From: Escherichia coli
GTDB lineage: Bacteria; Pseudomonadota; Gammaproteobacteria; Enterobacterales; Enterobacteriaceae
Length of the DNA stretch: 64,000 bases
Strand: one strand, 5' to 3'
NCBI RefSeq assembly: GCF_050920415.1
Contig: NZ_CP169309.1
The notes beneath the pieces are model-generated. The model was not told where the DNA came from and did not search any database. It saw only the letters and a list, made by a program, of their open reading frames with translations. A program made the position numbers and the translations under genes. Position 1 is the stretch's first letter; the number at the start of each line of letters is the position of its first letter. This document shows, one piece after another, positions 1 to 52,574 of the stretch.

Positions 1-1
1 C

Positions 2-817
2 GTTGAGAACTACGCCACGCTTACCCGCAGCGAAACACTGCTGCCGCTGGTGGGCGATAAAGCGAAGTTACAGCATTACGCCGCGACCACGCCGATTGTC
101 GATATGGTGCGTTTCTCTCCTGCGCAGCTTGACGCTGAAGCCCTGATTAACTTGCTGCGCCCGCTGACCCCGCGCCTGTACTCCATCGCCTCCTCGCAGG
201 CGGAAGTCGAGAACGAAGTACACGTCACCGTTGGTGTGGTGCGTTATGACATTGAAGGCCGCGCCCGTGCTGGCGGTGCCTCCAGCTTTCTTGCGGACCG
301 TGTGGAAGAAGAGGGCGAAGTCCGCGTATTTATCGAACATAACGACAACTTCCGCCTGCCCGCTAACCCGGAAACGCCGGTGATTATGATTGGCCCAGGC
401 ACCGGCATCGCGCCATTCCGCGCCTTTATGCAGCAACGCGCCGCTGACGAAGCGCCGGGCAAAAACTGGCTGTTCTTCGGCAACCCACACTTTACCGAAG
501 ATTTCCTCTACCAGGTGGAGTGGCAGCGCTACGTCAAAGAGGGCGTGCTGACGCGTATCGATCTTGCCTGGTCGCGCGATCAAAAAGAAAAAATTTACGT
601 ACAAGACAAAATGCGCGAACAGGGCGCAGAGCTGTGGCGCTGGATCAATGACGGTGCCCACATTTATGTCTGCGGCGACGCTAATCGCATGGCGAAAGAC
701 GTTGAACAGGCACTTCTGGAAGTGATTGCCGAATTTGGTGGCATGGACACCGAAGCGGCGGATGAATTTTTAAGTGAGCTGCGCGTAGAGCGCCGTTATC
801 AGCGAGATGTCTACTAA
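2..817 (+). CDS. cysJ: Sulfite reductase [NADPH] flavoprotein alpha subunit, C-terminal part (5' end lies outside the window)
   Basis: Reading frame is open from window start; translation shows the FAD/NADPH-binding C-terminus of CysJ; stop overlaps the cysI ATG by 1 nt (TAATG); followed by cysI and cysH in operon order. Confidence 0.9.
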
Positions 818-2529
818 TGAGCGAAAAACATCCAGGGCCTTTAGTGGTCGAAGGTAAACTGACAGACGCCGAGCGCATGAAGCTTGAGAGCAACTACCTG
901 CGCGGGACCATTGCGGAAGATTTAAACGACGGTCTGACCGGCGGCTTTAAGGGCGACAACTTCCTGCTGATCCGTTTCCACGGTATGTATCAGCAGGATG
1001 ACCGCGATATCCGCGCCGAACGTGCTGAACAGAAGCTGGAACCGCGTCATGCGATGCTGCTGCGCTGCCGTCTGCCGGGTGGGGTGATCACCACTAAACA
1101 GTGGCAGGCAATTGATAAATTCGCCGGTGAAAACACCATTTATGGCAGCATTCGCCTGACCAACCGCCAGACGTTCCAGTTCCACGGCATTCTGAAAAAG
1201 AACGTCAAACCGGTGCACCAGATGCTGCACTCGGTCGGTCTTGATGCGCTGGCGACCGCCAACGACATGAACCGTAATGTACTCTGCACCTCGAACCCAT
1301 TTGAATCTCAGTTGCACGCGGAAGCGTATGAGTGGGCGAAGAAAATCTCTGAACATCTGCTGCCGCGTACCCGCGCCTACGCGGAGATCTGGCTCGATCA
1401 GGAAAAAGTCGCCACCACTGACGAAGAACCGATCCTCGGTCAGACCTATCTGCCGCGTAAATTCAAAACCACGGTAGTGATCCCGCCGCAGAACGATATC
1501 GATCTGCACGCCAACGACATGAACTTTGTGGCGATCGCGGAAAACGGCAAGCTGGTGGGCTTCAACCTGCTGGTGGGTGGTGGGCTTTCTATCGAACACG
1601 GCAACAAGAAAACCTACGCCCGCACGGCGAGCGAGTTTGGCTATCTGCCACTGGAGCATACGCTGGCGGTGGCGGAAGCGGTCATTACCACTCAGCGTGA
1701 CTGGGGTAATCGTACTGACCGTAAAAACGCCAAAACCAAATACACGCTGGAGCGCGTGGGGGTCGAGACGTTTAAAGCAGAAGTGGAACGTCGCGCGGGG
1801 ATCAAGTTCGAACCGATCCGTCCGTATGAATTTACCGGTCGCGGCGATCGTATCGGCTGGGTAAAAGGGATCGACGACAAATGGCACTTGACGCTGTTTA
1901 TCGAAAATGGCCGAATTCTTGATTATCCGGGACGTCCGCTGAAAACCGGCCTGTTGGAGATCGCAAAGATCCACAAAGGTGATTTCCGCATTACGGCGAA
2001 CCAGAATCTGATCATCGCCGGTGTACCGGAAAGCGAGAAAGCGAAGATTGAGAAGATCGCCAAAGAGAGCGGATTGATGAATGCCGTCACGCCGCAGCGC
2101 GAAAACTCAATGGCCTGCGTGTCATTCCCGACTTGCCCGTTGGCGATGGCGGAAGCGGAGCGTTTCCTGCCGTCGTTTATCGATAACATCGATAATTTAA
2201 TGGCGAAACATGGTGTCAGCGATGAGCATATCGTGATGCGTGTAACAGGCTGCCCGAACGGTTGTGGTCGCGCGATGCTGGCGGAAGTGGGCCTGGTGGG
2301 TAAAGCGCCTGGGCGCTACAACCTGCATCTTGGTGGCAACCGCATTGGGACACGTATCCCACGGATGCATAAAGAAAACATCACCGAGCCGGAAATCCTG
2401 GCGACGCTTGATGAACTGATAGGGCGCTGGGCGAAAGAACGTGAAGCGGGTGAAGGCTTCGGCGACTTTACGGTGCGTGCGGGCATCATTCGCCCGGTGC
2501 TCGATCCGGCGCGTGATTTGTGGGATTAA
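817..2529 (+). CDS. cysI: Sulfite reductase hemoprotein beta subunit (siroheme/4Fe-4S)
   Basis: 570-aa ORF, length and sequence typical of CysI, with a C-terminal Cys cluster (CPNGCGR); translationally coupled to cysJ. Confidence 0.95.
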
Positions 2530-2560
2530 TATGAATTGCCGCTTCAACTCGGTTTTGTTG

Positions 2561-2636
2561 GCCTGATAAGCGAAGCGCCATCAGGCACTGTGACACCTTT
2601 TGCCGGATGTGGCATAAACGTCTTATCCGGCCTACT
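2561..2636. repeat. REP/BIME-like palindromic units in the cysI-cysH intergenic region
   Basis: Two GC-rich imperfect palindromes (gcctgataagcgaagcgccatcaggc and gccggatgtggcataaacgtcttatccggc) of the REP type. Confidence 0.6.
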
Positions 2637-2665
2637 TAACCCGCAAGGCAAACAGTGAGGAATCT

Positions 2666-3400
2666 ATGTCCAAACTCGATCTAAATGCGCTGAACGAACT
2701 GTCGAAGGTAGATCGCATTCTGGCGCTGGCGGAAACTAACGCCGAGCTTGAAAAACTGGATGCTGAAGGCCGCGTCGCCTGGGCGCTGGATAATCTGCCC
2801 GGTGAATATGTGCTTTCTTCCAGCTTCGGCATTCAGGCGGCGGTGAGCCTGCATCTGGTGAATCAGGTTCGCCCGGATATTCCGGTGATCCTCACCGATA
2901 CGGGTTATCTGTTCCCTGAAACCTACCGCTTTATTGACGAGTTAACGGACAAACTCAAGCTCAACCTGAAAGTGTACCGCGCTACCGAAAGCGCTGCCTG
3001 GCAGGAAGCACGCTACGGCAAACTGTGGGAACAGGGCGTTGAAGGCATTGAAAAGTACAACGATATCAACAAAGTCGAACCGATGAACCGGGCGCTGAAA
3101 GAACTAAACGCGCAAACGTGGTTTGCTGGCCTGCGCCGTGAACAATCCGGCAGCCGCGCTAATTTACCGGTGCTGGCAATTCAGCGTGGTGTATTCAAAG
3201 TGCTGCCGATTATCGACTGGGATAACCGAACTATTTATCAGTACCTGCAAAAACATGGCCTGAAATATCATCCATTATGGGACGAAGGATATTTATCGGT
3301 CGGTGATACCCATACAACCCGTAAATGGGAACCTGGTATGGCGGAAGAAGAAACGCGTTTCTTTGGCTTAAAAAGGGAATGTGGGCTGCACGAAGGGTAA
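2666..3400 (+). CDS. cysH: Phosphoadenosine phosphosulfate (PAPS) reductase
   Basis: 244-aa ORF with PAPS reductase family sequence and the C-terminal ECGLH motif; sits downstream of cysJI. Confidence 0.95.
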
Positions 3401-3417
3401 ATATTGCCGGATAAAAT

Positions 3418-3458
3418 AAACGCCTCTGTCAGAAATGATGGGGGCGTTTTTATTTTGC
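3418..3458 (+). terminator. Rho-independent terminator downstream of cysH
   Basis: Hairpin aacgcc...ggcgtt followed by ttttatttt, 18 nt after the cysH stop. Confidence 0.55.
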
Positions 3459-3757
3459 GAGCCGCATTCCGGCATTTAAACGTGAATATAGCAGGGGAAA
3501 TCAACAGTTATAGAATGGCGTCGGGTGCTTGAGGCTGTCTGGCGTTAAGCATTCGCGAGGTTCCAGATGGACAAAAGCCCCAGGCGATATATCTATCAAC
3601 CTGAGGCTCGCGTTCGAACGTAGCAATTCGGATGTTAGTCTCTTCTTTGCAGGGAGGCAAGACATGTGTATATCACTGTAATTCGATATTTATGAGCAGC
3701 ATCGAAAAATAGTCCACTGATATCATCGATAATACTAAAAAAACAGGGAGGCTATTA

Positions 3758-6424
3758 ATGGAACCTTTTAAATATATATGTCATTACTGGGGGAAATCCT
3801 CAAAAAGCCTGACGAAAGGAAATGATATTCATCTGTTGATTTATCATTGCCTGGATGTTGCAGCTGTTGCAGATTGCTGGTGGGATCAATCAGTCGTACT
3901 ACAAAATGCTTTTTGCCGAAATGAAATGCTATCAAAACAGAAGGTGAAAGCCTGGCTGTTATTTTTCATTGCCCTTCATGATATCGGAAAGTTTGATATA
4001 CGATTCCAATATAAATCAGCAGAAAGTTGGCTGAAATTAAATCCTGCAACGTCATCACTTAATGGTCCATCAACACAAATGTGCCGTAAATTTAATCATG
4101 GTGCAGCCGGTCTGTATTGGTTTAACCAGGATTCACTTTCAGAGCAATCTCCCGGGGATTTTTTCAGTTTTTTTGATGCCGCTCCTCATCCTTATGAGTC
4201 CTGGTTTCCTTGGGTAGAGGCCGTTACAGGACATCATGGTTTTATATTACATTCCCAGGATCAAGATAAGTCGCGTTGGGAAATGCCAGCTTCTCTGGCA
4301 TCTTATGCTGCGCAAGATAAACAGGCTCGTGAGGAGTGGATATCTGTACTCGAAGCATTATTTTTAACACCAGCCGGGTTATCTATAAACGATATACCAC
4401 CTGATTGTTCATCATTGTTAGCAGGTTTTTGCTCGCTTGCTGACTGGTTAGGTTCCTGGACCACAACGGATACCTTTCTATTCAAAGAAGATGCACCTTC
4501 AGGCATACAAGCGCTAAGAAAATATTTTCAGGATAGACAACAGGATGCGTGTCGGGTACTGGAGTTGAGTGGCCTTGTATCAAATAAGCGTAGTTATGAC
4601 GGCGTACATGCCTTACTGGACAATGGCTATCAACCAAGACAATTACAGGTGTTGGTTGATGCTCTTCCTACAGCTCCCGGGCTGACGGTGATTGAGGCAC
4701 CTACGGGATCAGGTAAAACCGAAACAGCGCTGGCCTATGCCTGGAAACTTATTGACCAACAACTTGCGGATAGTGTTATTTTTGCCCTCCCTACACAAGC
4801 TACTGCAAATGCAATGCTCAGCAGAATGGAAGCGAACGCGAGCCGTTTATTTACCTCCCCAAATCTTATTCTTGCTCATGGTAATTCACGTTTTAACCAC
4901 CTTTTTCAATCAATAAAATCACGCGCATTTACTGAGCAGGGGCAAGAAGAAGCGTGGGTTCAGTGTTGCCAATGGTTGTCACAAAGCAATAAGAAAGTGT
5001 TTCTTGGGCAAATAGGAGTTTGCACGATTGATCAGGTGTTGATATCGGTATTGCCAGTTAAACACCGCTTTATCCGTGGTTTGGGAATTGGTCGAAGTGT
5101 TTTAATTGTTGATGAAGTTCATGCTTACGACACGTATATGAACGGCTTGCTGGAGGCTGTGCTCAAGGCTCAGGCTGATGTGGGGGGGAGTGTTATTCTT
5201 CTTTCCGCAACTCTACCAATGAAACAAAAACAGAAACTTCTGGATACTTATGGTCTGCATACAGATCCAGAGGAAAATAACTCCGCATATCCACTCATTA
5301 ACTGGCGAGGTGTGAATGGTGCGCAACGTTTTGATCTGTTAGCTCATCCAGAACAACTCCCGCCCCGCTTTTCAATTCAGCTAGAACCTATTTATTTAGC
5401 TGACATGTTACCTGACCTTACGATGTTAGAGCGAATGATCGCAGCGGCAAACGCGGGTGCACAAGTCTGTCTTATTTGCAATTTGGTTGACGTTGCACAA
5501 GTATGCTACCAACGGCTAAAGGAGCTAAATAACACGCAAGTAGATATAGATTTGTTTCATGCACGCTTTACGCTGAACGATCGTCGAGAAAAAGAGAATC
5601 GTGTTATTAGCGATTTCGGAAAAAATGGGGATCGAAATGTTGGACGAATACTTGTCGCCACGCAAGTCGTGGAACAATCGCTCGACGTTGATTTTGATTG
5701 GTTAATTACCCAGCATTGTCCCGCAGATTTGCTTTTCCAACGATTGGGCCGTTTACATCGTCATCATCGCAAATATCGTCCCGCTGGTTTTGAGATTCCT
5801 GTTGCCACCATTTTGCTGCCTGATGGCGAGGGTTACGGACGACATGAGCATATTTATAGCAACGTTAGAGTCATGTGGCGGACGCAGCAACATATTGAGG
5901 AACTTAATGGAGCATCCTTATTTTTCCCTGATGCTTACCGGCAATGGCTGGATAGCATTTACGATGATGCGGAAATGGATGAGCCAGAATGGGTCGGCAA
6001 TGGCATGGATAAATTTGAAAGCGCCGAGTGTGAAAAAAGGTTCAAGGCTCGTAAGGTTCTGCAGTGGGCTGAAGAATATAGCTTGCAGGATAACGATGAA
6101 ACCATTCTTGCGGTAACGAGGGATGGGGAAATGAGCCTGCCATTATTGCCTTATGTACAAACGTCTTCAGGTAAACAACTGCTCGATGGCCAGGTCTACG
6201 AGGACCTAAGTCATGAACAGCAGTATGAGGTGTTAGCACTTAATCGCGTCAATGTACCCTTCACTTGGAAACGTAGTTTTTCTGAAGTAGTAGATGAAGA
6301 TGGGTTACTTTGGCTGGAAGGGAAACAGAATCAGGATGGATGGATCTGGCAGGGTAATAATATTGTTATTACCTACACTCGGGATGAAGGGATGACCAGA
6401 GTCATCCCTGCAAATCCCAAATAA
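3758..6424 (+). CDS. cas3: Cas3 HD nuclease / DEAD-box helicase (type I-E)
   Basis: 888-aa ORF with an N-terminal HD domain (HDIGK), a Walker A motif (APTGSGKT) and a DEVH box; immediately precedes casABCDE. Confidence 0.95.
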   Translation: MEPFKYICHYWGKSSKSLTKGNDIHLLIYHCLDVAAVADCWWDQSVVLQNAFCRNEMLSKQKVKAWLLFFIALHDIGKFDIRFQYKSAESWLKLNPATSSLNGPSTQMCRKFNHGAAGLYWFNQDSLSEQSPGDFFSFFDAAPHPYESWFPWVEAVTGHHGFILHSQDQDKSRWEMPASLASYAAQDKQAREEWISVLEALFLTPAGLSINDIPPDCSSLLAGFCSLADWLGSWTTTDTFLFKEDAPSGIQALRKYFQDRQQDACRVLELSGLVSNKRSYDGVHALLDNGYQPRQLQVLVDALPTAPGLTVIEAPTGSGKTETALAYAWKLIDQQLADSVIFALPTQATANAMLSRMEANASRLFTSPNLILAHGNSRFNHLFQSIKSRAFTEQGQEEAWVQCCQWLSQSNKKVFLGQIGVCTIDQVLISVLPVKHRFIRGLGIGRSVLIVDEVHAYDTYMNGLLEAVLKAQADVGGSVILLSATLPMKQKQKLLDTYGLHTDPEENNSAYPLINWRGVNGAQRFDLLAHPEQLPPRFSIQLEPIYLADMLPDLTMLERMIAAANAGAQVCLICNLVDVAQVCYQRLKELNNTQVDIDLFHARFTLNDRREKENRVISDFGKNGDRNVGRILVATQVVEQSLDVDFDWLITQHCPADLLFQRLGRLHRHHRKYRPAGFEIPVATILLPDGEGYGRHEHIYSNVRVMWRTQQHIEELNGASLFFPDAYRQWLDSIYDDAEMDEPEWVGNGMDKFESAECEKRFKARKVLQWAEEYSLQDNDETILAVTRDGEMSLPLLPYVQTSSGKQLLDGQVYEDLSHEQQYEVLALNRVNVPFTWKRSFSEVVDEDGLLWLEGKQNQDGWIWQGNNIVITYTRDEGMTRVIPANPK

Positions 6425-6838
6425 CTTCGGGAATGATTGGTATCAATGACGATAACAAGACCAATAACGGTTTATCCCTACTTAAGTAGGGAAGGTGCAC
6501 AATGTACATCTTCTTTTAATTTCCCGGTATGAGATTTTATATTCACAGTATGAATATTTTATGTAATAAAATTTATGGTAATTATTATAACTAAAAATTT
6601 CTTTGATAATAAAACGAATAACTTGCAGATTTGAAATGCATGCATTATTGTCTTTAAACAATTCAACACATCTTAATATATGCATAGGTTAATTGTATTA
6701 AACCAATGAATATATTTTTGCAGTGAATGTGATTATTGAATTAATTACGCCGTATTTTTTCTTTGTTTTTACCGATAACGGAAGTGTGCCGACGTATAGA
6801 AATGCAGGAGAAATGTCGGAGCATATGAAGGAGAACAA
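6425..6838 (+). promoter_or_regulatory. AT-rich cas3-casA intergenic region carrying the Cascade operon promoter (H-NS/LeuO-regulated in K-12)
   Basis: 414-bp strongly AT-rich non-coding stretch directly upstream of casA. The promoter assignment comes from published K-12 work, not from exact motif positions read here. Confidence 0.45.
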
Positions 6839-8347
6839 ATGAATTTGCTTATTGATAACTGGATCCCTGTACGCCCGCGAAACGGGGGGAAAGTCCAAAT
6901 CCTAAATCTGCAATCGCTATACTGCAGTAGAGATCAGTGGCGGTTAAGTTTGCCCCGTGACGATATGGAACTGGCCGCTTTAGCACTGCTGGTTTGCATT
7001 GCACAAATTATCGCCCCGGCAAAAGATGACGTTGAATTTCGACATCGCATAATGAATCCGCTCACTGAAGATGAGTTTCAACGACTCATCGCGCCGTGGA
7101 TAGATATGTTCTACCTTAATCACGCAGAACATCCCTTTATGCAGACCAAAGGTGTCAAAGCAAATGATGTGACTCCAATGGAAAAACTATTGGCAGGGGT
7201 AAGCGGCGCGACGAATTGTGCATTTGTCAATCAACCGGGGCAGGGTGAAGCATTATGTGGTGGATGCACTGCGATTGCGTTATTCAACCAGGCGAATCAG
7301 GCACCTGGTTTTGGTGGTGGCTTTAAAAGCGGTTTACGTGGAGGAACACCTATAACCACCTTCGTATGTGGGATCGATCTTCGCTCGACGGTGTTACTCA
7401 ATGTCCTCACAATACCTCGTCTTCAAAAACAATTTCCCAATGAATCAAATACGGAAAACCAACCTACCTGGATTAAGCCTGTCAAGCCCAATGAATCTGT
7501 GCCAGCTTCGTCAATTGGGTTTGTCCGTGGCTTATTCTGGCAACCAGCGCATATTGAATTATGCGATCCCATTGGGATTGGTAAATGTTCTTGCTGTGGA
7601 CAGGAAAGCAATTTGCGTTATACAGGTTTTCTTAAGGAAAAATTTACCTTTACAGTTAATGGGCTATGGCCCCATCCGCATTCCCCTTGTCTGGTAACAG
7701 TCAAGAAAGGGGAGGTTGAGGAAAAATTTCTTGCTTTCACCACCTCCGCACCATCATGGACGCAAATCAGCCGAGTTGTGGTAGATAAGATTATTCAAAA
7801 TGAAAATGGAAATCGCGTGGCGGCGGTTGTGAATCAATTCAGAAATATTGCGCCGCAAAGTCCTCTTGAATTGATTATGGGGGGATATCGTAATAATCAA
7901 GCATCTATTCTTGAACGACGTCATGATGTGCTGATGTTTAATCAGGGGTGGCAACAATACGGCAATGTTATAAACGAAATAGTGACTGTTGGTTTGGGGT
8001 ATAAAACAGCCTTACGCAAGGCGTTATATACTTTTGTGGAAGGTATTAAAAATAAAGACTTTAAAGGGGCTGGAGTCTCTGTTCATGAGACTGCAGAAAG
8101 GCATTTCTATCGACAGAGTGAATTATTAATTCCCGATGTATTGGCGAATGTTAATTTTTCCCAGGCTGATGAGGTAATAGCTGATTTACGAGACAAACTT
8201 CATCAATTGTGTGAAATGCTATTTAATCAATCTGTAGCTCCCTATGCACATCATCCTAAATTAATAAGCACATTAGCACTCGCCCGCGCCACGCTATACA
8301 AACATTTACGGGAGTTAAAACCGCAAGGAGGGCCATCAAATGGCTGA
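6839..8347 (+). CDS. casA: Cascade large subunit Cse1/CasA
   Basis: 502-aa ORF at the head of the Cascade operon; start MNLLIDNWIPVRPR matches Cse1. Confidence 0.95.
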   Translation: MNLLIDNWIPVRPRNGGKVQILNLQSLYCSRDQWRLSLPRDDMELAALALLVCIAQIIAPAKDDVEFRHRIMNPLTEDEFQRLIAPWIDMFYLNHAEHPFMQTKGVKANDVTPMEKLLAGVSGATNCAFVNQPGQGEALCGGCTAIALFNQANQAPGFGGGFKSGLRGGTPITTFVCGIDLRSTVLLNVLTIPRLQKQFPNESNTENQPTWIKPVKPNESVPASSIGFVRGLFWQPAHIELCDPIGIGKCSCCGQESNLRYTGFLKEKFTFTVNGLWPHPHSPCLVTVKKGEVEEKFLAFTTSAPSWTQISRVVVDKIIQNENGNRVAAVVNQFRNIAPQSPLELIMGGYRNNQASILERRHDVLMFNQGWQQYGNVINEIVTVGLGYKTALRKALYTFVEGIKNKDFKGAGVSVHETAERHFYRQSELLIPDVLANVNFSQADEVIADLRDKLHQLCEMLFNQSVAPYAHHPKLISTLALARATLYKHLRELKPQGGPSNG

Positions 8348-8822
8348 TGAAATTGATGCAATGGCTTTATATCGAGCCTGGCAACAGCTGGATAACGGAG
8401 CATGTGCGCAAATTAGACGTGTTTCAGAACCTGATGATTTACGCGATATCCCTGCGTTTTATCGGTTGGTGCAACCTTTTGGTTGGGAAAACCTGCGTCA
8501 CCAACAGGCTCTTTTGCGCATGGTGTTTTGCCTGAGCGCAGGAAAGAATGTCATCCGACATCAGGATAAAAAACCGGAGCAAACAATAGGTATCTCGTTG
8601 GGAAGAGCTTTAGCCAATAGTGGAAGAATTAACGAGCGCCGTATCTTCCAATTGATTCGGGCTGACAGAACAGCCGATATGGTCCAGTTACGTCGATTGC
8701 TTGCTCACGCCGAACCCGTACTTGACTGGTCATTAATGGCCCGGATGTTGACCTGGTGGGGAAAGCGCGAACGCCAGCAACTTCTGGAAGATTTTGTATT
8801 GACCACAAACAAAAATGCGTAA
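8340..8822 (+). CDS. casB: Cascade small subunit Cse2/CasB
   Basis: 160-aa ORF overlapping the casA 3' end by 8 nt; position and size match Cse2. Confidence 0.93.
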   Translation: MADEIDAMALYRAWQQLDNGACAQIRRVSEPDDLRDIPAFYRLVQPFGWENLRHQQALLRMVFCLSAGKNVIRHQDKKPEQTIGISLGRALANSGRINERRIFQLIRADRTADMVQLRRLLAHAEPVLDWSLMARMLTWWGKRERQQLLEDFVLTTNKNA

Positions 8823-8834
8823 GGAAACCTCTCA

Positions 8835-9926
8835 ATGTCTAATTTTATTAATATCCATGTCCTGATCTCTCACAGCCCTTCATGTCTGAACCGCGACGAT
8901 ATGAACATGCAGAAAGACGCTATTTTCGGCGGGAAAAGGCGAGTAAGAATTTCAAGTCAAAGCCTTAAACGTGCGATGCGTAAAAGTGATTATTACGCAC
9001 AAAATATTGGTGAATCCAGTCTCAGAACAATTCATCTTGCACAATTACGTGATGTTCTTCGGCAAAAACTTGGTGAACGTTTTGAGCAAAAAATCATCGA
9101 TAAGACATTAGCTCTGCTCTCCGGTAAATCAGTTGATGAAGCTGAAAAGATTTCTGCCGATGCGGTTACTCCCTGGGTTGTGGGAGAAATAGCCTGGTTC
9201 TGTGAGCAGGTTGCAAAAGCAGAGGCAGATAATCTGGATGATAAAAAGCTGCTCAAAATTCTTAAGGAAGATATTGCCGCTATCCGTGTGAATTTACAGC
9301 AGGGGGTTGATATTGCGCTTAGCGGAAGAATGGCAACCAGCGGCATGATGAGTGAGTTGGGAAAAGTTGATGGTGCAATGTCCATTGCGCACGCGATCAC
9401 GACCCATCAGGTTGATTCTGATATTGACTGGTTCACCGCCGTAGATGATTTACAGGAACAAGGTTCTGCACATCTGGGAACACAGGAATTTTCATCGGGT
9501 GTTTTTTATCGTTATGCCAACATTAACCTTGCTCAACTTCAGGAAAATTTAGGCGGCGCCTCCTGGGAGCAGGCTCTGGAAATTGCAACCCATGTTGTTC
9601 ATATGCTGGCAACAGAGGTCCCTGGAGCAAAACAGCGTACTTATGCCGCTTTTAACCCTGCGGAGATGGTAATGGTTAATTTCTCCGATATGCCACTTTC
9701 TATGGCAAATGCTTTTGAAAAAGCGGTGAAAGCGAAAGATGGCTTTTTGCAACCGTCTATACAGGCGTTTAATCAATATTGGGATCGCGTTGCGAATGGC
9801 TATGGTCTGAACGGAGCTGCTGCGCAATTTAGCTTGTCTGACATGGACCCAATTACTGCTCAGGTTAAACAAATGCCTACTTTAGAACAGTTAAAATCCT
9901 GGGTTCGTAATAATGGCGAGGCGTGA
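8835..9926 (+). CDS. casC: Cascade backbone subunit Cas7/CasC
   Basis: 363-aa ORF in operon position 3. Confidence 0.95.
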
Positions 9927-9928
9927 AC

Positions 9929-10603
9929 ATGAGATCTTATTTGATCTTGCGGCTTGCTGGGCCAATGCAAGCCTGGGGGCTGCCGACCTTTGAAGGAACG
10001 CGACCTACCGGAAGATTTCCGACCCGAAGCGGGTTATTAGGGCTACTCGGGGCTTGTCTTGGGATCCAACGTGATGATACTTCTTCATTACAGGTGTTAT
10101 CAGAGAGTGTGCAATTTGCAGTGCGTTGCGATGAACTCATTCTTGACGATCGTCGTGTGTCTGTAACGGGGTTGCGTGATTACCATACAGTCCTTGGAGC
10201 GCGAGAAGATTACCGTGGTTTGAAAAGTCATGAAACGATTCAAACATGGCGCGAATATTTATGTGATGCCTCCTTTACCGTCGCTATCTGGTTAACACCA
10301 CAGGCAACGATGGTTATGTCAGAACTTGAAAAAGCAGTATTAAAGCCTCGGTATACACCGTATCTGGGGCGGAGGAGTTGTCCGCTAACACAACCGCTTT
10401 TTCTCGGGACATGTCAGGCGTCGGATCCTCAGAAGGCGCTATTAAATTATGAGCCCGTTGGCGGCGATATTTATAGTGAGGAATCAGTTGACGGGCATCA
10501 TTTAAAATTTACGGTGCGCGACGAACCGATGATCACCTTACCTCGACAATTTGCTTCCCGGGAATGGTATGTGATTAAAGGAGGTATGGATGTATCTCAG
10601 TAA
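9929..10603 (+). CDS. casD: Cascade subunit Cas5/CasD
   Basis: 224 aa from the ATG at 9929 (the ORF track begins 2 codons earlier at a GTG); start MRSYLILRLAGPMQAWG. Confidence 0.9.
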   Translation: MRSYLILRLAGPMQAWGLPTFEGTRPTGRFPTRSGLLGLLGACLGIQRDDTSSLQVLSESVQFAVRCDELILDDRRVSVTGLRDYHTVLGAREDYRGLKSHETIQTWREYLCDASFTVAIWLTPQATMVMSELEKAVLKPRYTPYLGRRSCPLTQPLFLGTCQASDPQKALLNYEPVGGDIYSEESVDGHHLKFTVRDEPMITLPRQFASREWYVIKGGMDVSQ

Positions 10604-11189
10604 AATCATCATTGCCAGGGCCTGTAGCAGGGATCTTTACCAACTTCACCAGGGATTATGGCATTTATTTCCAAATAGACCAGATGCTGCTCGTGATTTT
10701 CTTTTTCATGTTGAGAAGCGAAACACACCAGAAGGCTGTCATGTTTTATTGCAGTCAGCGCAAATGCCTGTTTCAACTGCCGTTGCGACAGTCATTAAAA
10801 CTAAACAGGTTGAATTTCAACTTCAGGTTGGTGTTCCACTCTATTTTCGGCTTCGGGCAAATCCGATCAAAACTATTCTCGACAATCAAAAGCGTCTGGA
10901 CAGTAAAGGGAATATTAAACGCTGTCGGGTTCCGTTAATAAAAGAAGCAGAACAAATCGCGTGGTTGCAACGTAAATTGGGCAATGCGGCGCGCGTTGAA
11001 GATGTGCATCCCATATCGGAACGGCCACAGTATTTTTCTGGGGAAGGTAAAAATGGAAAAATCCAAACGGTTTGCTTTGAAGGTGTGCTCACCGTCAATG
11101 ACGCATCAGCGTTAATGGATCTTATACAGCAAGGTATTGGGCCAGCCAAATCGATGGGATGTGGTTTGCTATCTTTGGCTCCACTGTGA
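10590..11189 (+). CDS. casE: Cas6e/CasE pre-crRNA endoribonuclease
   Basis: 199-aa ORF overlapping the casD 3' end; Cas6e family. Confidence 0.95.
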   Translation: MYLSKIIIARACSRDLYQLHQGLWHLFPNRPDAARDFLFHVEKRNTPEGCHVLLQSAQMPVSTAVATVIKTKQVEFQLQVGVPLYFRLRANPIKTILDNQKRLDSKGNIKRCRVPLIKEAEQIAWLQRKLGNAARVEDVHPISERPQYFSGEGKNGKIQTVCFEGVLTVNDASALMDLIQQGIGPAKSMGCGLLSLAPL

Positions 11190-11204
11190 TTGAGGTGTAA
11201 TAAA

Positions 11205-12408
<1,204 letters not shown>

Positions 12409-12513
12409 AAACAAAGAATTAGCTGATCTTTAATAATAAGGAAATGTTACATTAAGGTTGGTGGGTTGTTTTTATGGGAAAAAATGCTTTAAGAACAAAT
12501 GTATACTTTGAGA
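12409..12513 (+). promoter_or_regulatory. CRISPR leader (AT-rich; array promoter and integration-proximal region)
   Basis: About 105-bp AT-rich sequence between the cas2 stop and the first repeat. Confidence 0.7.
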
Positions 12514-13701
12514 GAGTTCCCCGCGCCAGCGGGGATAAACCGCTCGCGTATACTCTCTGCCAACGTCTCCAGATGAGTTCCCCGCGCCAGCGGGGATAAA
12601 CCGGCGGGATTATCGGCACTGACGTCGGCGCTGTGGAGTTCCCCGCGCCAGCGGGGATAAACCGGGTCGCTTCCATATATGAACCTTGAGGATTAGGAGT
12701 TCCCCGCGCCAGCGGGGATAAACCGGTTCCATGCACTGCCCGCAGTGTCAGCCGTACGAGTTCCCCGCGCCAGCGGGGATAAACCGGTAAATCATACGTT
12801 GGCATCAGTATTTTTCTCGAGTTCCCCGCGCCAGCGGGGATAAACCGACTCCGCGCCATTTGAGAATTCTCAGTTCTGCGAGTTCCCCGCGCCAGCGGGG
12901 ATAAACCGCTACTGCTGTCAGACGGCAGGGCAAAACAGCGGAGTTCCCCGCGCCAGCGGGGATAAACCGGACGTGCGGATGCTGTTTCTGGTTTTACCTC
13001 CGAGTTCCCCGCGCCAGCGGGGATAAACCGTTTTTTCTCAGCGTCTGGCAGAGCTAATCGCCGAGTTCCCCGCGCCAGCGGGGATAAACCGGTGTCAAAT
13101 TTCATGTAATTGATGATCCAGCTGAGTTCCCCGCGCCAGCGGGGATAAACCGGGTATTTCTCGTTAACACGGTCGTATCAAAACGAGTTCCCCGCGCCAG
13201 CGGGGATAAACCGAGGGGTTGCAACCATAGCCCTTAGTTGATTGCGAGTTCCCCGCGCCAGCGGGGATAAACCGCCAGTGGATTTTAATAAACTCTCCAG
13301 CGAGCAGAGTTCCCCGCGCCAGCGGGGATAAACCGTTCGCCACGTCAGGCGTGATTTCCTGCACTGAGAGTTCCCCGCGCCAGCGGGGATAAACAGGGCG
13401 CGTCTGCGCCCGCTAGGACTCGTGTCAAGAGTTCCCCGCGCCAGCGGGGATAAACCGGGAGTTCAGACATAGGTGGAATGATGGACTACGAGTTCCCCGC
13501 GTTAGCGGGGATAAACCGCCCGGTAGCCAGGTTTGCAACGCCTGAACCGAGAGTTCCCCGCGCCAGCAGGGATAAATCGGCAACGACGGTGAGATTTCAC
13601 GCCTGACGCTGGTGTTCCCCGCATCAGCGGGGATAAACCGGGCGCACTGGATGCGATGATGGATATCACTTAGAATTCCCCGCCCCTGCGGTAGAACTCC
13701 C
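12514..13701 (+). CRISPR. Type I-E CRISPR array: 19 regular 29-bp repeats plus one degenerate terminal repeat, 19 spacers of 32 bp
   Basis: Repeat GAGTTCCCCGCGCCAGCGGGGATAAACCG recurs with an exact 61-bp period from 12514 to 13612. Repeats at 13368, 13490, 13551 and 13612 carry point variants, and a heavily degenerate terminal repeat sits at 13673-13701. Confidence 0.97.
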
Positions 13702-13721: not shown

Positions 13722-14759
13722 TCAAGACGCCTTCGCCAGTTCCTTCACTAGCGGTAGCATTATCCGCATAACGTCACGGCAGCGACGTTCTATTCTTCCA
13801 GGAAGCGCCTTATCAATATGCTGTTGATTATCAAGCCTTACATCATGCCAGCTATTTCCCGCCGGGAAGGCCGGTGTTTTTGCGCGTTGCTGATAACCAT
13901 CCTTATTTCCAAGATTCCAGTTGGTCGCCTCCACCGAAAGTACCGCAATACCGGCTTTGTCGAAAACTTCTGCATCGTTACAACACCCAGTGCCTTTCGG
14001 ATAGTTTTTATTCAAACCTGGATTTGTTGTCGCTGCAATCCCATGATTATGCGCAATTGCCAGCGCTCGATCACGGGTTAATTTCCTGACAGCCTCTGGT
14101 GTATTTACACCACTATTAAAATACAATTTATCGCCAACAATTAAGTTATCGAGATTAATCACCAGCAGCGTATTTTTCTTTTCAGTATCGCTCATGCGCT
14201 TGAGTAAATTCTCAGCGCCTAATTTCCCTTCTTCTTCTCCACTGGTTGCCACAAAACGAATACCATACTCGGTAGGCGTATTTTTCAGACGTTCAGCCAG
14301 TTCCAGCATGACACCTAAACCTGCGGCGTTATCATCCATTCCTTGTAATGTCAGCCCGCCGAGATTGGCATCGGCGTCGGCATCGCTCAGTGGAGCGTAC
14401 GTATCAAGATGCGCCATAATAATGATCTGCTGCGGCGCTTTGCCTTCATGAGCGGCAATCACCGTACTTCCCGTCACGTTGTGCCAGTTTTTGCGGTTAT
14501 CGCGGGCGGTGTAAATATATCGGCTATTAAATGTCCGAATATCACTGCGATAACCCATCTGTTGAAACTGTTGGCGAATATAATCGGCAGATAACATTTC
14601 TGCAGGAGTTCCGGTCATGCGTCCCGGAAAGAAAGTAGCAATATGTCGTGCCTGTGTATTAGCAAAATCACCAGGTTTAGGTGACGAGGCGTGTACGGGG
14701 AGAATAAAGCATACGCCGAGCGCCAGGGCAGCGGTACGGTGGCGCAATGCGGAAAACAT
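13722..14759 (-). CDS. iap: Alkaline phosphatase isozyme conversion aminopeptidase
   Basis: 345-aa ORF with a signal peptide and M28-type aminopeptidase sequence; convergent with the CRISPR array. Confidence 0.92.
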   Translation of the reverse strand: MFSALRHRTAALALGVCFILPVHASSPKPGDFANTQARHIATFFPGRMTGTPAEMLSADYIRQQFQQMGYRSDIRTFNSRYIYTARDNRKNWHNVTGSTVIAAHEGKAPQQIIIMAHLDTYAPLSDADADANLGGLTLQGMDDNAAGLGVMLELAERLKNTPTEYGIRFVATSGEEEGKLGAENLLKRMSDTEKKNTLLVINLDNLIVGDKLYFNSGVNTPEAVRKLTRDRALAIAHNHGIAATTNPGLNKNYPKGTGCCNDAEVFDKAGIAVLSVEATNWNLGNKDGYQQRAKTPAFPAGNSWHDVRLDNQQHIDKALPGRIERRCRDVMRIMLPLVKELAKAS

Positions 14760-24834: not shown

Positions 24835-24901
24835 TATGGGGAGTTGGTGTGTTTCGTCGCCTGGATAAGACACGTCAGCGTCCCATCCGGCAATCAACAT
24901 C

Positions 24902-25309
24902 CTATTTGCTCATCATCTTGCGCACCAGCTGCATAAACAGCTCCTGCTCTTCTCCACTCAAACGCCCCAAAAATTCCTCATCCACACTGTCGCCAATCGG
25001 TATCGCCGCAGCAAGTACCTTTTCTCCTTCGGCAGTCAGCCAGACAAAGCGTCGCCGCTTATCAGCGGTGTCATGTTCACGTCTGACTAAGCCACGATTT
25101 TCCATTCTTGCCAACATTTCTGCCAGCGTTGCTTTGGTGCTGACGGCTGCTTCCATCAGTGCCACCTGTTCGATACCAGGTTTATCAGCAATGGCGCGCA
25201 TCACCGCGTACTGTGGTTTGGTCAGGTCAGGTAACTCGTGCTGCCAGCGGGCCGTATGCTGCTGAAAAAGCTGTCGTAACTGATGGAACGCTTTATTTCG
25301 TAACGCCAT
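24902..25309 (-). CDS. MarR/SlyA-family transcriptional regulator
   Basis: 135-aa ORF with winged-helix MarR-like sequence; divergent from the decarboxylase operon. Confidence 0.8.
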   Translation of the reverse strand: MALRNKAFHQLRQLFQQHTARWQHELPDLTKPQYAVMRAIADKPGIEQVALMEAAVSTKATLAEMLARMENRGLVRREHDTADKRRRFVWLTAEGEKVLAAAIPIGDSVDEEFLGRLSGEEQELFMQLVRKMMSK

Positions 25310-25455
25310 GTAAACTCCGGGCTAATTCTCTGTCGCTATCATAGCGGTTTTTCAGTGACGAAGAAGATGTTGTTACTTTTCAATCCTTGCCGCTGTGGAA
25401 ATGAAGGAGTATGTTAATAATAACGTTCGTATACGAACAATTAAGATAGTAAGCA

Positions 25456-26049
25456 ATGAAACTGATCGTCGGGATGACAGGGGCTACCGGTGCGCCTCTT
25501 GGTGTGGCATTACTGCAAGCGCTGCGGGAGATGCCGAATGTCGAGACTCATCTGGTGATGTCGAAGTGGGCGAAAACCACTATTGAACTGGAAACGCCTT
25601 ACAGCGCTCGCGATGTTGCCGCCCTCGCTGACTTCAGCCATAACCCGGCGGATCAGGCTGCGACCATCTCTTCCGGCTCCTTTCGTACCGACGGCATGAT
25701 CGTTATTCCATGCAGTATGAAAACGCTCGCCGGTATCCGCGCTGGTTACGCCGATGGTCTCGTAGGGCGCGCGGCGGACGTCGTGCTCAAAGAAGGCCGC
25801 AAACTGGTGCTGGTGCCGCGTGAAATGCCGCTTAGCACCATCCATCTCGAAAATATGCTCGCACTTTCGCGCATGGGCGTGGCGATGGTGCCGCCGATGC
25901 CTGCCTTTTATAACCATCCCGAAACGGTAGATGACATTGTCCACCACGTGGTAGCCCGCGTGCTGGATCAATTTGGCCTCGAACATCCTCACGCCAGGCG
26001 CTGGCAAGGGTTGCCGCAGGCCCGGAATTTTTCTCAGGAGAATGAATAA
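25456..26049 (+). CDS. ecdB: UbiX/Pad1-like flavin prenyltransferase (decarboxylase B subunit)
   Basis: 197-aa ORF (MKLIVGMTGATGAPLGVALLQAL...), UbiX family. The ecdB name is as recalled for the E. coli O157 homologue. Confidence 0.85.
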   Translation: MKLIVGMTGATGAPLGVALLQALREMPNVETHLVMSKWAKTTIELETPYSARDVAALADFSHNPADQAATISSGSFRTDGMIVIPCSMKTLAGIRAGYADGLVGRAADVVLKEGRKLVLVPREMPLSTIHLENMLALSRMGVAMVPPMPAFYNHPETVDDIVHHVVARVLDQFGLEHPHARRWQGLPQARNFSQENE

Positions 26050-27476
26050 TGGCATTTGATGATTTACGCAGCTTTTTACAGGCGCTCGACGACCAGGGGC
26101 AATTGCTGAAAATCAGCGAAGAGGTGAATGCCGAGCCGGATCTGGCTGCCGCTGCCAACGCCACCGGGCGTATCGGCGACGGCGCGCCCGCGCTGTGGTT
26201 TGATAATATTCGCGGCTTTACCGATGCGCGCGTGGCGATGAACACCATCGGCTCCTGGCAGAACCACGCGATTTCCCTCGGGCTGCCACCGAACACACCG
26301 GTTAAAAAACAGATTGATGAGTTTATCCGCCGCTGGGATAACTTTCCCATTGCCCCGGAACGCCGCGCCAATCCTGCCTGGGCGCAGAACACCGTCGATG
26401 GCGACGAGATCAATTTGTTCAATATCCTGCCGCTGTTTCGTTTAAACGATGGCGATGGCGGTTTCTATCTCGACAAAGCGTGCGTGGTTTCCCGCGATCC
26501 GCTCGATCCGGATAACTTCGGCAAGCAGAACGTCGGCATCTATCGCATGGAAGTGAAGGGTAAGCGTAAGCTCGGCCTGCAACCGGTGCCGATGCACGAT
26601 ATCGCCCTGCATCTGCATAAAGCAGAAGAGCGCGGTGAAGATCTGCCGATTGCGATCACGCTCGGTAACGATCCGATCATCACCCTGATGGGCGCCACCC
26701 CGCTGAAATATGATCAATCGGAGTACGAAATGGCGGGCGCACTACGCGAAAGCCCGTACCCGATCGCCACCGCCCCGCTGACCGGTTTTGATGTGCCGTG
26801 GGGCTCGGAGGTGATCCTCGAAGGGGTAATCGAAAGCCGTAAACGCGAGATTGAAGGGCCGTTCGGTGAATTTACCGGCCACTACTCCGGCGGGCGCAAC
26901 ATGACCGTGGTGCGCATCGATAAAGTCTCTTACCGCACCAAACCGATTTTTGAATCGCTCTATCTCGGTATGCCGTGGACCGAAATCGACTACCTGATGG
27001 GGCCAGCCACCTGTGTGCCGCTGTATCAGCAACTGAAAGCCGAGTTCCCGGAAGTGCAGGCGGTGAACGCTATGTACACCCACGGCCTGCTGGCGATTAT
27101 CTCCACCAAAAAACGCTATGGCGGCTTTGCCCGCGCAGTGGGCCTGCGTGCGATGACCACGCCGCACGGTCTGGGTTATGTGAAGATGGTGATTATGGTC
27201 GATGAAGACGTTGACCCGTTCAACCTGCCGCAGGTGATGTGGGCGCTCTCGTCGAAAGTGAACCCGGCAGGCGATCTGGTGCAACTGCCGAATATGTCCG
27301 TGCTGGAACTCGACCCAGGCTCAAGCCCGGCGGGGATCACCGATAAGCTGATTATCGACGCCACCACGCCTGTCGCCCCGGACAACCGTGGCCACTACAG
27401 CCAGCCGGTGGTGGACTTACCGGAAACCAAAGCCTGGGCTGAAAAACTGACCGCTATGCTGGCCGCACGTAAATAA
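26049..27476 (+). CDS. ecdC: UbiD-family reversible hydroxyarylic acid decarboxylase (C subunit)
   Basis: 475-aa UbiD-like ORF, start overlapping the upstream stop. Confidence 0.85.
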   Translation: MAFDDLRSFLQALDDQGQLLKISEEVNAEPDLAAAANATGRIGDGAPALWFDNIRGFTDARVAMNTIGSWQNHAISLGLPPNTPVKKQIDEFIRRWDNFPIAPERRANPAWAQNTVDGDEINLFNILPLFRLNDGDGGFYLDKACVVSRDPLDPDNFGKQNVGIYRMEVKGKRKLGLQPVPMHDIALHLHKAEERGEDLPIAITLGNDPIITLMGATPLKYDQSEYEMAGALRESPYPIATAPLTGFDVPWGSEVILEGVIESRKREIEGPFGEFTGHYSGGRNMTVVRIDKVSYRTKPIFESLYLGMPWTEIDYLMGPATCVPLYQQLKAEFPEVQAVNAMYTHGLLAIISTKKRYGGFARAVGLRAMTTPHGLGYVKMVIMVDEDVDPFNLPQVMWALSSKVNPAGDLVQLPNMSVLELDPGSSPAGITDKLIIDATTPVAPDNRGHYSQPVVDLPETKAWAEKLTAMLAARK

Positions 27477-27486
27477 GGAGAACAAG

Positions 27487-27723
27487 ATGATTTGTCCACG
27501 TTGTGCCGATGAACAGATTGAAGTGATGGCGAAATCGCCGGTGAAAAATGTCTGGACGGTCTACCAGTGCCAGCATTGCCTTTATACCTGGCGCGATACT
27601 GAACCGCTACGCCGCACCAGCCGCGAACATTATCCCGAAGCCTTCCGCATGACGCAGAAAGATATTGATGACGCGCCGATGGTGCCGAGCATCCCGCCGC
27701 TGCTGGCGGAAGGTAAGCGCTAA
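27487..27723 (+). CDS. ecdD: Small decarboxylase-associated subunit D with a Cys-rich zinc-ribbon-like motif
   Basis: 78-aa ORF with CPRC...CQHC motifs, immediately downstream of the UbiD-like gene as in bsdBCD/vdcBCD-type operons. Confidence 0.75.
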   Translation: MICPRCADEQIEVMAKSPVKNVWTVYQCQHCLYTWRDTEPLRRTSREHYPEAFRMTQKDIDDAPMVPSIPPLLAEGKR

Positions 27724-51823: not shown

Positions 51824-52135
51824 ATGCACATCATTTCTAAAGCGCCATTTGAAGAGTCTGCGCGTAAATATCCTAACGACGCTCTGGCTCTACACTCATT
51901 GTATCGGGTTATTAAGGAAACGGATTTTTCTACGCCAGAAGAAATGCGAACGGCGTTTCCCAACCTCGACAATTTTAAATATCGCAATAAATGGTACGTT
52001 CTGGATGTAGGCGGGAACAATCTTAGGGTTATTGCCTACATAAACTTTGTTAATAAGCGGTTCTTTGTGAAGCACATAACGAATCATGCCGAGTATGACA
52101 AACTGACACGTTACTACAGAGAGAACAAAGAATGA
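51824..52135 (+). CDS. HigB-like type II toxin (RelE/ParE superfamily mRNA interferase)
   Basis: 103-aa ORF (MHIISKAPFEE...FPNLDNFKYRNKWYVLDVGGNNLRVIAY...) with HigB-family architecture; Shine-Dalgarno aggaag upstream; 4-nt overlap (ATGA) with the downstream antitoxin gene; AT-richer than the flanking hyc genes. Confidence 0.75.
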   Translation: MHIISKAPFEESARKYPNDALALHSLYRVIKETDFSTPEEMRTAFPNLDNFKYRNKWYVLDVGGNNLRVIAYINFVNKRFFVKHITNHAEYDKLTRYYRENKE

Positions 52136-52551
52136 CTGCTAATGCTGCACGCGCTGTTAAAGCAACAAGAGAACTGGTCAATGCAGTCCCCTTTCTGGGA
52201 GGCAGTGACTCAGAAGATGATTATCGTGAAGCACTGGAACTGGTCGAATATTTGATTGAAGAAGATGACACCAATCCACTTATCGACTTTCTGGCGAGCC
52301 GTATTGCAGAATATGAAAACAACCACGAAAAGTTTGCAGAGTTCGATAAAGCCGTTGCAGCAATGCCGATTGGCGTGGCGTTACTTCGCACGCTGATTGA
52401 TCAACATAATCTGACCTATGCGGATTTGAAGAACGAAATCGGCTCTAAATCCCTGGTCAGTCAGATTTTGTCTGGACAAAGATCCCTGACGATATCCCAC
52501 ATTAAGGCACTTTCAGCCCGATTTGGCGTTAAGCCGGAATGGTTTCTTTGA
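52132..52551 (+). CDS. HigA-like antitoxin (XRE-family HTH)
   Basis: 139-aa ORF whose C-terminal HTH (GSKSLVSQILSGQRSLTISHIKALSARFGV) and N-terminal region resemble HigA; toxin-first gene order typical of higBA. Confidence 0.75.
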   Translation: MTANAARAVKATRELVNAVPFLGGSDSEDDYREALELVEYLIEEDDTNPLIDFLASRIAEYENNHEKFAEFDKAVAAMPIGVALLRTLIDQHNLTYADLKNEIGSKSLVSQILSGQRSLTISHIKALSARFGVKPEWFL

Positions 52552-52574
52552 TTTTTGACAGATGCCAAACGCCA

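Follow-up and report, generated by a model that had tools for sequence, protein, structure and literature searches.

The CRISPR locus beside iap in the window, a 64,000-nucleotide stretch of Escherichia coli contig NZ_CP169309.1, is very probably an intact, K-12-type version of type I-E CRISPR-Cas carried by a rare lineage, with an array that forms a chronological record in which the traceable sources are temperate phages. The system is already known, being the best-studied CRISPR-Cas, and only the spacer set is new. The array (12514..13701, + strand; period 61) consists of 20 repeats and 19 spacers, as defined by a repeat scan, the spacing of the repeats, and a hairpin fold, and follows eight cas genes that occupy positions 3758-12408.

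Recognition of the array relies on a 29-nt consensus repeat, GAGTTCCCCGCGCCAGCGGGGATAAACCG, present in 19 copies with no more than three mismatches on the + strand between 12514 and 13640; the number of copies expected by chance, based on 100 dinucleotide-preserving shuffles of the window, is 0. The distance from one repeat start to the next is 61 bp throughout (starts 12514 to 13612), and a twentieth, degenerate repeat, GAATTCCCCGCCCCTGCGGTAGAACTCCC, closes the array at 13673..13701 (+ strand). The 20 repeats (19 good and one degenerate terminal) thus enclose 19 spacers of exactly 32 nt each, all of them distinct, with the most similar pair still differing at 17 of 32 positions. A first-pass annotation had described a regular 61-bp period over 19 repeats with a terminal degenerate repeat and spacers that are all distinct, and these measurements bear out both statements. 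The same annotation had set the bounds of the array at 12409-13701, of which the end stands, being the end of the degenerate repeat, but the start does not: 12409 is the first base past the cas2 stop codon and the first repeat begins at 12514, so that 12409-12513 is leader and lies outside the array.

The K-12 consensus is matched exactly by 15 of the 19 repeats. Folded as RNA, the repeat gives a hairpin of 7 bp and a 4-nt loop (-15.1 kcal/mol, z = -3.6), a shape that Cas6e (CasE) is known to cut. The palindromic 29-nt repeat with its Cas6e hairpin, the 32-nt spacers, and the 61-bp units are those of type I-E. The trailer end is flanked by iap (13722..14759, - strand), a 345-aa open reading frame at the place where iap is annotated in both K-12 and the closely related strain MFDS1022581. 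The position between cas2 and iap, together with a species-wide anchor spacer beside the degenerate repeat, identifies the array as E. coli CRISPR-I (CRISPR2.1). A reading of the periodic repeat as some other tandem or REP-like repeat could draw on two observations, namely that the repeats matched no CRISPR-DR family of Rfam, whether under the gathering thresholds or with E relaxed to 1, a result that favors neither side, and that Tandem Repeats Finder detects the array only as fragments, because the spacers are mutually unrelated. This reading is refuted, with a negligible chance of being correct, by several features: the repeat has the sequence of the CRISPR repeat of K-12, the 32-nt spacers are unique, a leader is present, cas1-cas2 are adjacent, and protospacers with PAMs exist; the homologous array is also annotated as 'CRISPR' by NCBI.

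The eight cas genes are all encoded on the + strand, and each has exactly the length of its MG1655 counterpart and contains no internal stop codon. The first gene, cas3 (3758..6424; 888 aa), encodes a fused HD nuclease and helicase, shows 95.3% nucleotide identity to K-12, and scores 1612 bits against NF007248 (cut-off 569); its product also matches TIGR01596 (HD) and TIGR01587 (helicase core), as is characteristic of a fused HD/superfamily-2 helicase. The Cascade genes begin with casA/cse1 (6839..8347; 502 aa; 97.2% nucleotide identity to K-12; NF007247, 900 bits versus a cut-off of 576), encoding the large subunit that reads the PAM, and casB/cse2 (8340..8822; 160 aa; 96.3%; TIGR02548, 57 bits versus 28.5), so that both type I-E signature genes are present above cut-off. 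They are followed in canonical order by casC/cas7e (8835..9926; 363 aa; 96.6%; TIGR01869, 425 bits versus 178), casD/cas5e (9929..10603; 224 aa; 96.7%; TIGR01868, 277 bits), and casE/cas6e (10590..11189; 199 aa; 97.2%; TIGR01907, 264 bits), the last encoding the pre-crRNA endonuclease, and then by the adaptation genes cas1e (11205..12122; 305 aa; 96.8%; TIGR03638, 375 bits versus 215), encoding the spacer integrase, and cas2e (12124..12408; 94 aa; 99.3%; TIGR01873, 143 bits).

All eight Cas proteins score above the curated NCBIfam cut-offs for type I-E. Residues that we take to be catalytic or PAM-reading, as in K-12, are unchanged, including H74, D75, K78, K320, and DEVH452-455 of Cas3, E141, H208, D218, and D221 of Cas1, H20 of CasE, and F129, V130, and N131 of the L1 loop of CasA. 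The full length of the eight genes and the intactness of the type I-E operon beside the array, both asserted by the first-pass annotation, are upheld by these comparisons. The operon differs from that of K-12 at approximately 291 nucleotides and by 77 amino-acid changes; this proportion implies a dN/dS of roughly 0.1, as would be expected of an operon under purifying selection. In the interval between cysH and cas3, a full-length match to the sok antitoxin RNA (Rfam RF01794, 97 bits) is found at 3523-3678 (+ strand). Because sokX of MG1655 is annotated at the same place, this match represents the known hok/sok-type remnant.

The non-coding parts of the locus are conserved to a greater extent than its genes. 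The leader between cas2 and the first repeat (12409..12513, + strand) is A+T-rich, as expected of a CRISPR leader (105 nt, 72% A+T), and is identical to the K-12 CRISPR-I leader at 104 of 105 positions. The cas3-casA intergenic region (6425..6838; 414 bp, 70% A+T) is identical to K-12 at 408 of 414 positions. Identity to K-12 is thus higher in the leader and the cas promoter region (98.6-99%) than in the cas genes (95-97%). In K-12, the cas3-casA region holds the cas promoter, which is repressed by H-NS and activated by LeuO (PMC12248084, PMC4782391), and a role of 6425..6838 as the Pcas promoter and the site of H-NS and LeuO action is assigned by homology. No usable signal emerged when the leader and the cas3-casA region were scanned for consensus promoters and terminators. 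As in K-12, H-NS probably represses the expression of the cas genes, a view based on the identity of the cas3-casA region (408/414) and the leader (104/105) to their K-12 counterparts.

The chromosomal site, gene order, gene lengths, and repeat consensus are identical to those of K-12 MG1655, with nucleotide identities of 95-99% for the cas genes. The resemblance extends to the trailer end of the array (13458..13672, + strand), in which spacers 16-19 correspond to K-12 spacers 10-13 with a single mismatch, located in the last of them, and are separated by the same variant repeats. Given that these four spacers and the variant repeats match K-12, the trailer end is ancestral. Of 5,426 complete E. 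coli genomes, 3,747 (69%) contain spacer 19 in their arrays, and spacers 16-19 occur all together in 643. In contrast, the 15 leader-proximal spacers all differ from those of K-12, the eight Cas proteins carry the 77 amino-acid substitutions, and the flanking cysJIH genes are only ~94-95% identical. The window array also exceeds that of MG1655 in size, with 19 spacers versus 13 by the same count, in agreement with the earlier statement that MG1655 has fewer. The array is therefore not identical to that of K-12, a possibility for which a check had been proposed, and has no more than the four trailer-end spacers in common with it.

The lineage-specific, leader-proximal part of the array comprises spacers 1-15 and their repeats (12543..13428, + strand). 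These spacers are absent from K-12 and, among the 5,426 complete genomes, occur in a single array, that of MFDS1022581 (NZ_CP169399.1), a strain from South Korea. The two strains are ~99.99% identical across the window, with few bases different over the ~62 kb compared: upstream of the array, 12.5 kb match at 100.0%, and downstream, 49.8 kb match at 99.988%, with five mismatches and one gap. Every other genome among the 5,426 is at most 96.7% identical over the cys-cas segment.

The array of MFDS1022581 contains the same spacers in the same order but is devoid of spacers 4-8, and hence has 14 spacers rather than 19. A spacer-by-spacer comparison places the difference at 12697..13001 (+ strand), corresponding to five repeat-spacer units or 305 bp, with exact breakpoints that cannot be placed because the repeats are identical. 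Because acquisition takes place at the leader end and both arrays have spacers 1-3, we infer that MFDS1022581 lost the five units, for which recombination between identical repeats is the simplest route. The two arrays display no gain at the leader end relative to each other and no sign of recent acquisition. An assembly artefact, be it a collapse of repeats in MFDS1022581 or a wrong join in the window, is a very unlikely cause of the difference between 19 and 14 spacers. Assemblies readily collapse 29-bp repeats that are identical, and exactly five whole units separate the two arrays; however, a 1.2-kb array is easily spanned by long reads, the loss of internal units between identical repeats is a commonly reported change in E. 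coli arrays (PMC2886076), and spacers 4 and 8 are evidently real, given their genuine protospacers with AAG PAMs. Loss of spacers 4-8 through the gain of a targeted prophage was also considered for MFDS1022581 and rejected, as no self-target is present outside its array: neither spacers 1-15 (E up to 1) nor spacers 16-19 have a site elsewhere in that genome.

The neighborhood of the array differs between its two sides in the number of relatives. The cysJIH-cas segment on the left (window 1-12513) is a rare allele, with one of the 5,426 genomes more than 96.7% identical, and the segment on the right (13702-38000) has several relatives at 98-99%. This difference suggests a mosaic or a possible recombination boundary at the CRISPR locus. 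Farther along the window, a MarR-family regulator and subunits B, C, and D of a hydroxyarylic acid decarboxylase are encoded at ~24900-27720, between rpoS and ygbN, in what is presumably part of the known variable rpoS-mutS region and absent from K-12. A HigB-family toxin with a helix-turn-helix antitoxin, mapped from the annotation of MFDS1022581, is located between hycI and ascB at ~51825-52552 (+ strand).

The sources of the spacers were sought in INPHARED (50,697 phage genomes), PLSDB (72,556 plasmid records), the 5,426 complete E. coli genomes, and IMG/VR. Spacers were searched in concatenated form, at a sensitivity that picks up imperfect matches, and IMG/VR was scanned for exact patterns in which one base in six was free to vary. 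Protospacers exist for four of the 15 lineage-specific spacers (4, 8, 11, and 15), all of them inside E. coli prophages. Spacer 4 (12726..12757, + strand) matches the baseplate J/gp47 gene of a myovirus-type prophage, at 31/32 positions with a 5'-AAG PAM in strain 40EC, where the mismatch falls at position 7 within the seed, and at 30/32 with AAG in LZSFT34. Spacer 8 (12970..13001, + strand) matches a gene for a 738-aa protein in the early region of a lambdoid prophage, at 32/32 positions with 5'-AAG in EC958, whose prophage is integrated beside tRNA-Leu/Cys/Gly. The spacer 8 protospacer occurs in ~440 E. coli genomes, including E24377A and SE11, and in 12 viral contigs of IMG/VR, in which AAG is found in 12 out of 12; these contigs also served as the positive control of the exact-pattern scan. 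Spacer 11 (13153..13184, + strand) matches the nin region of a lambdoid prophage at 32/32 positions in STEC384 and STEC379, with a non-canonical GCG PAM. Spacer 15 (13397..13428, + strand) matches the gpA-type gene for the replication endonuclease in a P2-like prophage, at 32/32 positions with a CAG PAM in N1420 and at 29-30/32 in related prophages, where the PAM is CGG, AAG, or AAA.

The traced protospacers carry a 5' AAG/AWG-type PAM signature with a co-acquired G at -1, in a sample as small as four. A G is found at -1 in all four, for which the chance is ~0.4%, and AAG in two of four, with a chance of ~0.15% for at least two. Unprimed adaptation is known to draw commonly on non-AAG sources, and the pattern fits that share as well as the established co-acquisition of the PAM G (PMC4027179). 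The non-canonical GCG and CAG PAMs of spacers 11 and 15 may fail to support interference.

The other 11 lineage-specific spacers, out of 15, went unmatched in every collection searched; in particular, the exact-pattern scans of IMG/VR with spacers 1, 2, 3, 5, 6, and 7 returned none. None of the 19 spacers has a genuine match among the 50,697 phage genomes of INPHARED, in which a single match (E = 0.2) was rejected for spanning the artificial junction of two concatenated spacers. The 72,556 records of PLSDB likewise contain no true plasmid protospacer. Spacer 19 is present in three PLSDB records of 4.8-4.9 Mb, probably as chromosomal arrays filed as plasmids, and a match on a 606-kb Enterobacter 'plasmid' falls in a prophage-like gene of a record that also carries cpxARP and is of doubtful plasmid status. 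These four records (NZ_OL790696.1, NZ_CP141089.1, NZ_CP134663.1, and NZ_CP077309.1), comprising the 4.8-4.9 Mb entries and the linear 606-kb 'plasmid' with cpxARP, are probably chromosomes or chromosome fragments that yield false plasmid matches for spacers. A further match, on an IncHI2 plasmid, was rejected as a protospacer because it is a chromosomal cas-array-iap segment. The 293-kb conjugative IncHI2 plasmid pIOMTU792 of E. coli harbors a type I-E locus in which a chromosomal-type segment (NZ_LC542972.1, 243936-249967) consists of cas5e-cas6e-cas1e-cas2e, an array, and iap.

Within the window, no spacer matches elsewhere at up to eight mismatches. The checks for protospacers and for self-targeting that had been recommended for this array therefore gave matches for four of the 15 non-K-12 spacers, with AAG in two, and no self-target in either the window or MFDS1022581. 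The view that the spacers record the exposure history of the strain itself is supported by the lineage-specific nature of the 15 non-K-12 spacers, four of which have prophage protospacers.

An overlap with other arrays was detected for spacer 4, the last 25 nt of which match annotated CRISPR regions in the genomes 2014C-3338, SCU-171, JNE120442, and 21F61. The array was read in one of these four, 2014C-3338, where spacer 10 (1502-1533 of the extracted stretch) comes from the baseplate J site that spacer 4 matches, with an offset of 8 nt in the downstream direction. The PAM of that spacer would be AGG in the 40EC prophage, with ATG at that position of the window's spacer. Spacer 4 and spacer 10 of 2014C-3338 look like independent, overlapping acquisitions from related phages.

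One repeat in the leader-proximal part deviates from the consensus. Repeat 15 (13368..13396, + strand), as identified by repeat comparison, ends in ...AACAG rather than ...AACCG and is the sole variant among the 16 young repeats; the same variant is present in MFDS1022581. The changed base corresponds to the -2 base in the protospacer context of spacer 15, such that 35 consecutive bases (CAG plus 32) agree between the array and the P2-like gpA context in N1420. The CAG, AAG, and AAA versions of the spacer 15 site have an A at -2, which the CGG version lacks. A tentative and rather improbable explanation is that the variant is a scar left when an aberrant integration brought in, along with spacer 15, two nucleotides of the PAM, the A at -2 and the G at -1; alternatively, it could be a simple point mutation or a coincidence. 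Carry-over of the PAM would need a 34-nt prespacer and duplication of 27 nt of the repeat, which would keep the 61-bp period. If true, repeat 15 would be a natural example of the Cas1-Cas2 ruler slipping by one base at the PAM end.

The steps of the mechanism are established for K-12 and, by near-identity, would apply to this locus. The array would be transcribed from the leader, and CasE would cut each repeat at the 3' base of the 7-bp hairpin, releasing 61-nt crRNAs with the 5' handle AUAAACCG. Cascade, composed of CasA-E and the crRNA, would find spacer-matching DNA beside a 5'-AAG-type PAM and recruit Cas3 for degradation. Cas1-Cas2 would add new 33-bp fragments at the leader end, and such addition would make the array a chronological record, in which the four trailer-end spacers are likely ancient and shared within the species and the 15 leader-proximal ones specific to the lineage. 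The traceable spacers derive from temperate phages, namely lambdoid and P2-like or other myovirus prophages, and not from virulent phages or plasmids, and arrays in this lineage change mainly through the loss of internal units.

It is possible, if unlikely, that the locus is an intact-looking relic, long unused for immunity, with leftover spacers and an array that decays by deletion only. The comparison with the ~99.99% identical sibling lends itself to this interpretation, since the sole difference between the arrays is five lost internal units with no gain at the leader end, and the three newest spacers are unmatched in the 50,697 phage genomes, the 72,556 plasmids, the 5,426 E. coli genomes, and IMG/VR. 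K-12-like silencing is to be expected from the conserved promoter region, and a slow turnover of arrays has been described (PMC2886076). Against a relic stand the eight intact genes, which show strong purifying selection relative to K-12 and have kept their catalytic residues, the 15 spacers added since the split from the K-12-type trailer, and the signature of acquisition in the traced spacers (G at -1, AAG); an anti-prophage role has also been argued for (PMC10910852). An intact system with a record of past exposure remains the preferred description of the locus.

The organization of the array can be compared with the pattern described for CRISPR1/2 across the species. Touchon and Rocha reported in 2010 that spacers found in a single genome are always at the leader end, that the most conserved spacers are at the far end and shared by almost every array, and that deletions are the only differences between very close strains (PMC2886076). 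In the same study, all chromosomal protospacers of CRISPR1/2 were in prophages, baseplate J was among the target genes, and a class of E24377A/SE11 prophages was targeted by many strains (PMC2886076). Dion et al. reached the same conclusion in 2024 after a study of 1,769 isolates, in which arrays held 2-32 spacers (PMC10910852). The window is consistent with this pattern in its unique leader-end and near-universal trailer-end spacers, in the deletion between close relatives, and in its prophage protospacers, including baseplate J, with no matches to virulent phages. For spacer 8, the matches include prophage genes of E24377A as well as SE11, and its target possibly belongs to the prophage class described for these strains (PMC2886076). 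Nothing in the locus is qualitatively different from the species-wide pattern, and only the 15-spacer set is new relative to the 5,426 complete genomes; an array of 19 spacers in which all traceable spacers point to temperate phages is typical of the species.

The 15 leader-proximal spacers provide a lineage marker among the 5,426 complete genomes and are of little importance beyond strain typing. They add one further data point to the view that type I-E spacers of E. coli derive from temperate rather than lytic phages or plasmids. The strain of the window and MFDS1022581 constitute a natural, near-identical pair that is five spacers apart, two of which match known prophages, and the pair could be used for testing whether the native system blocks lysogenisation.
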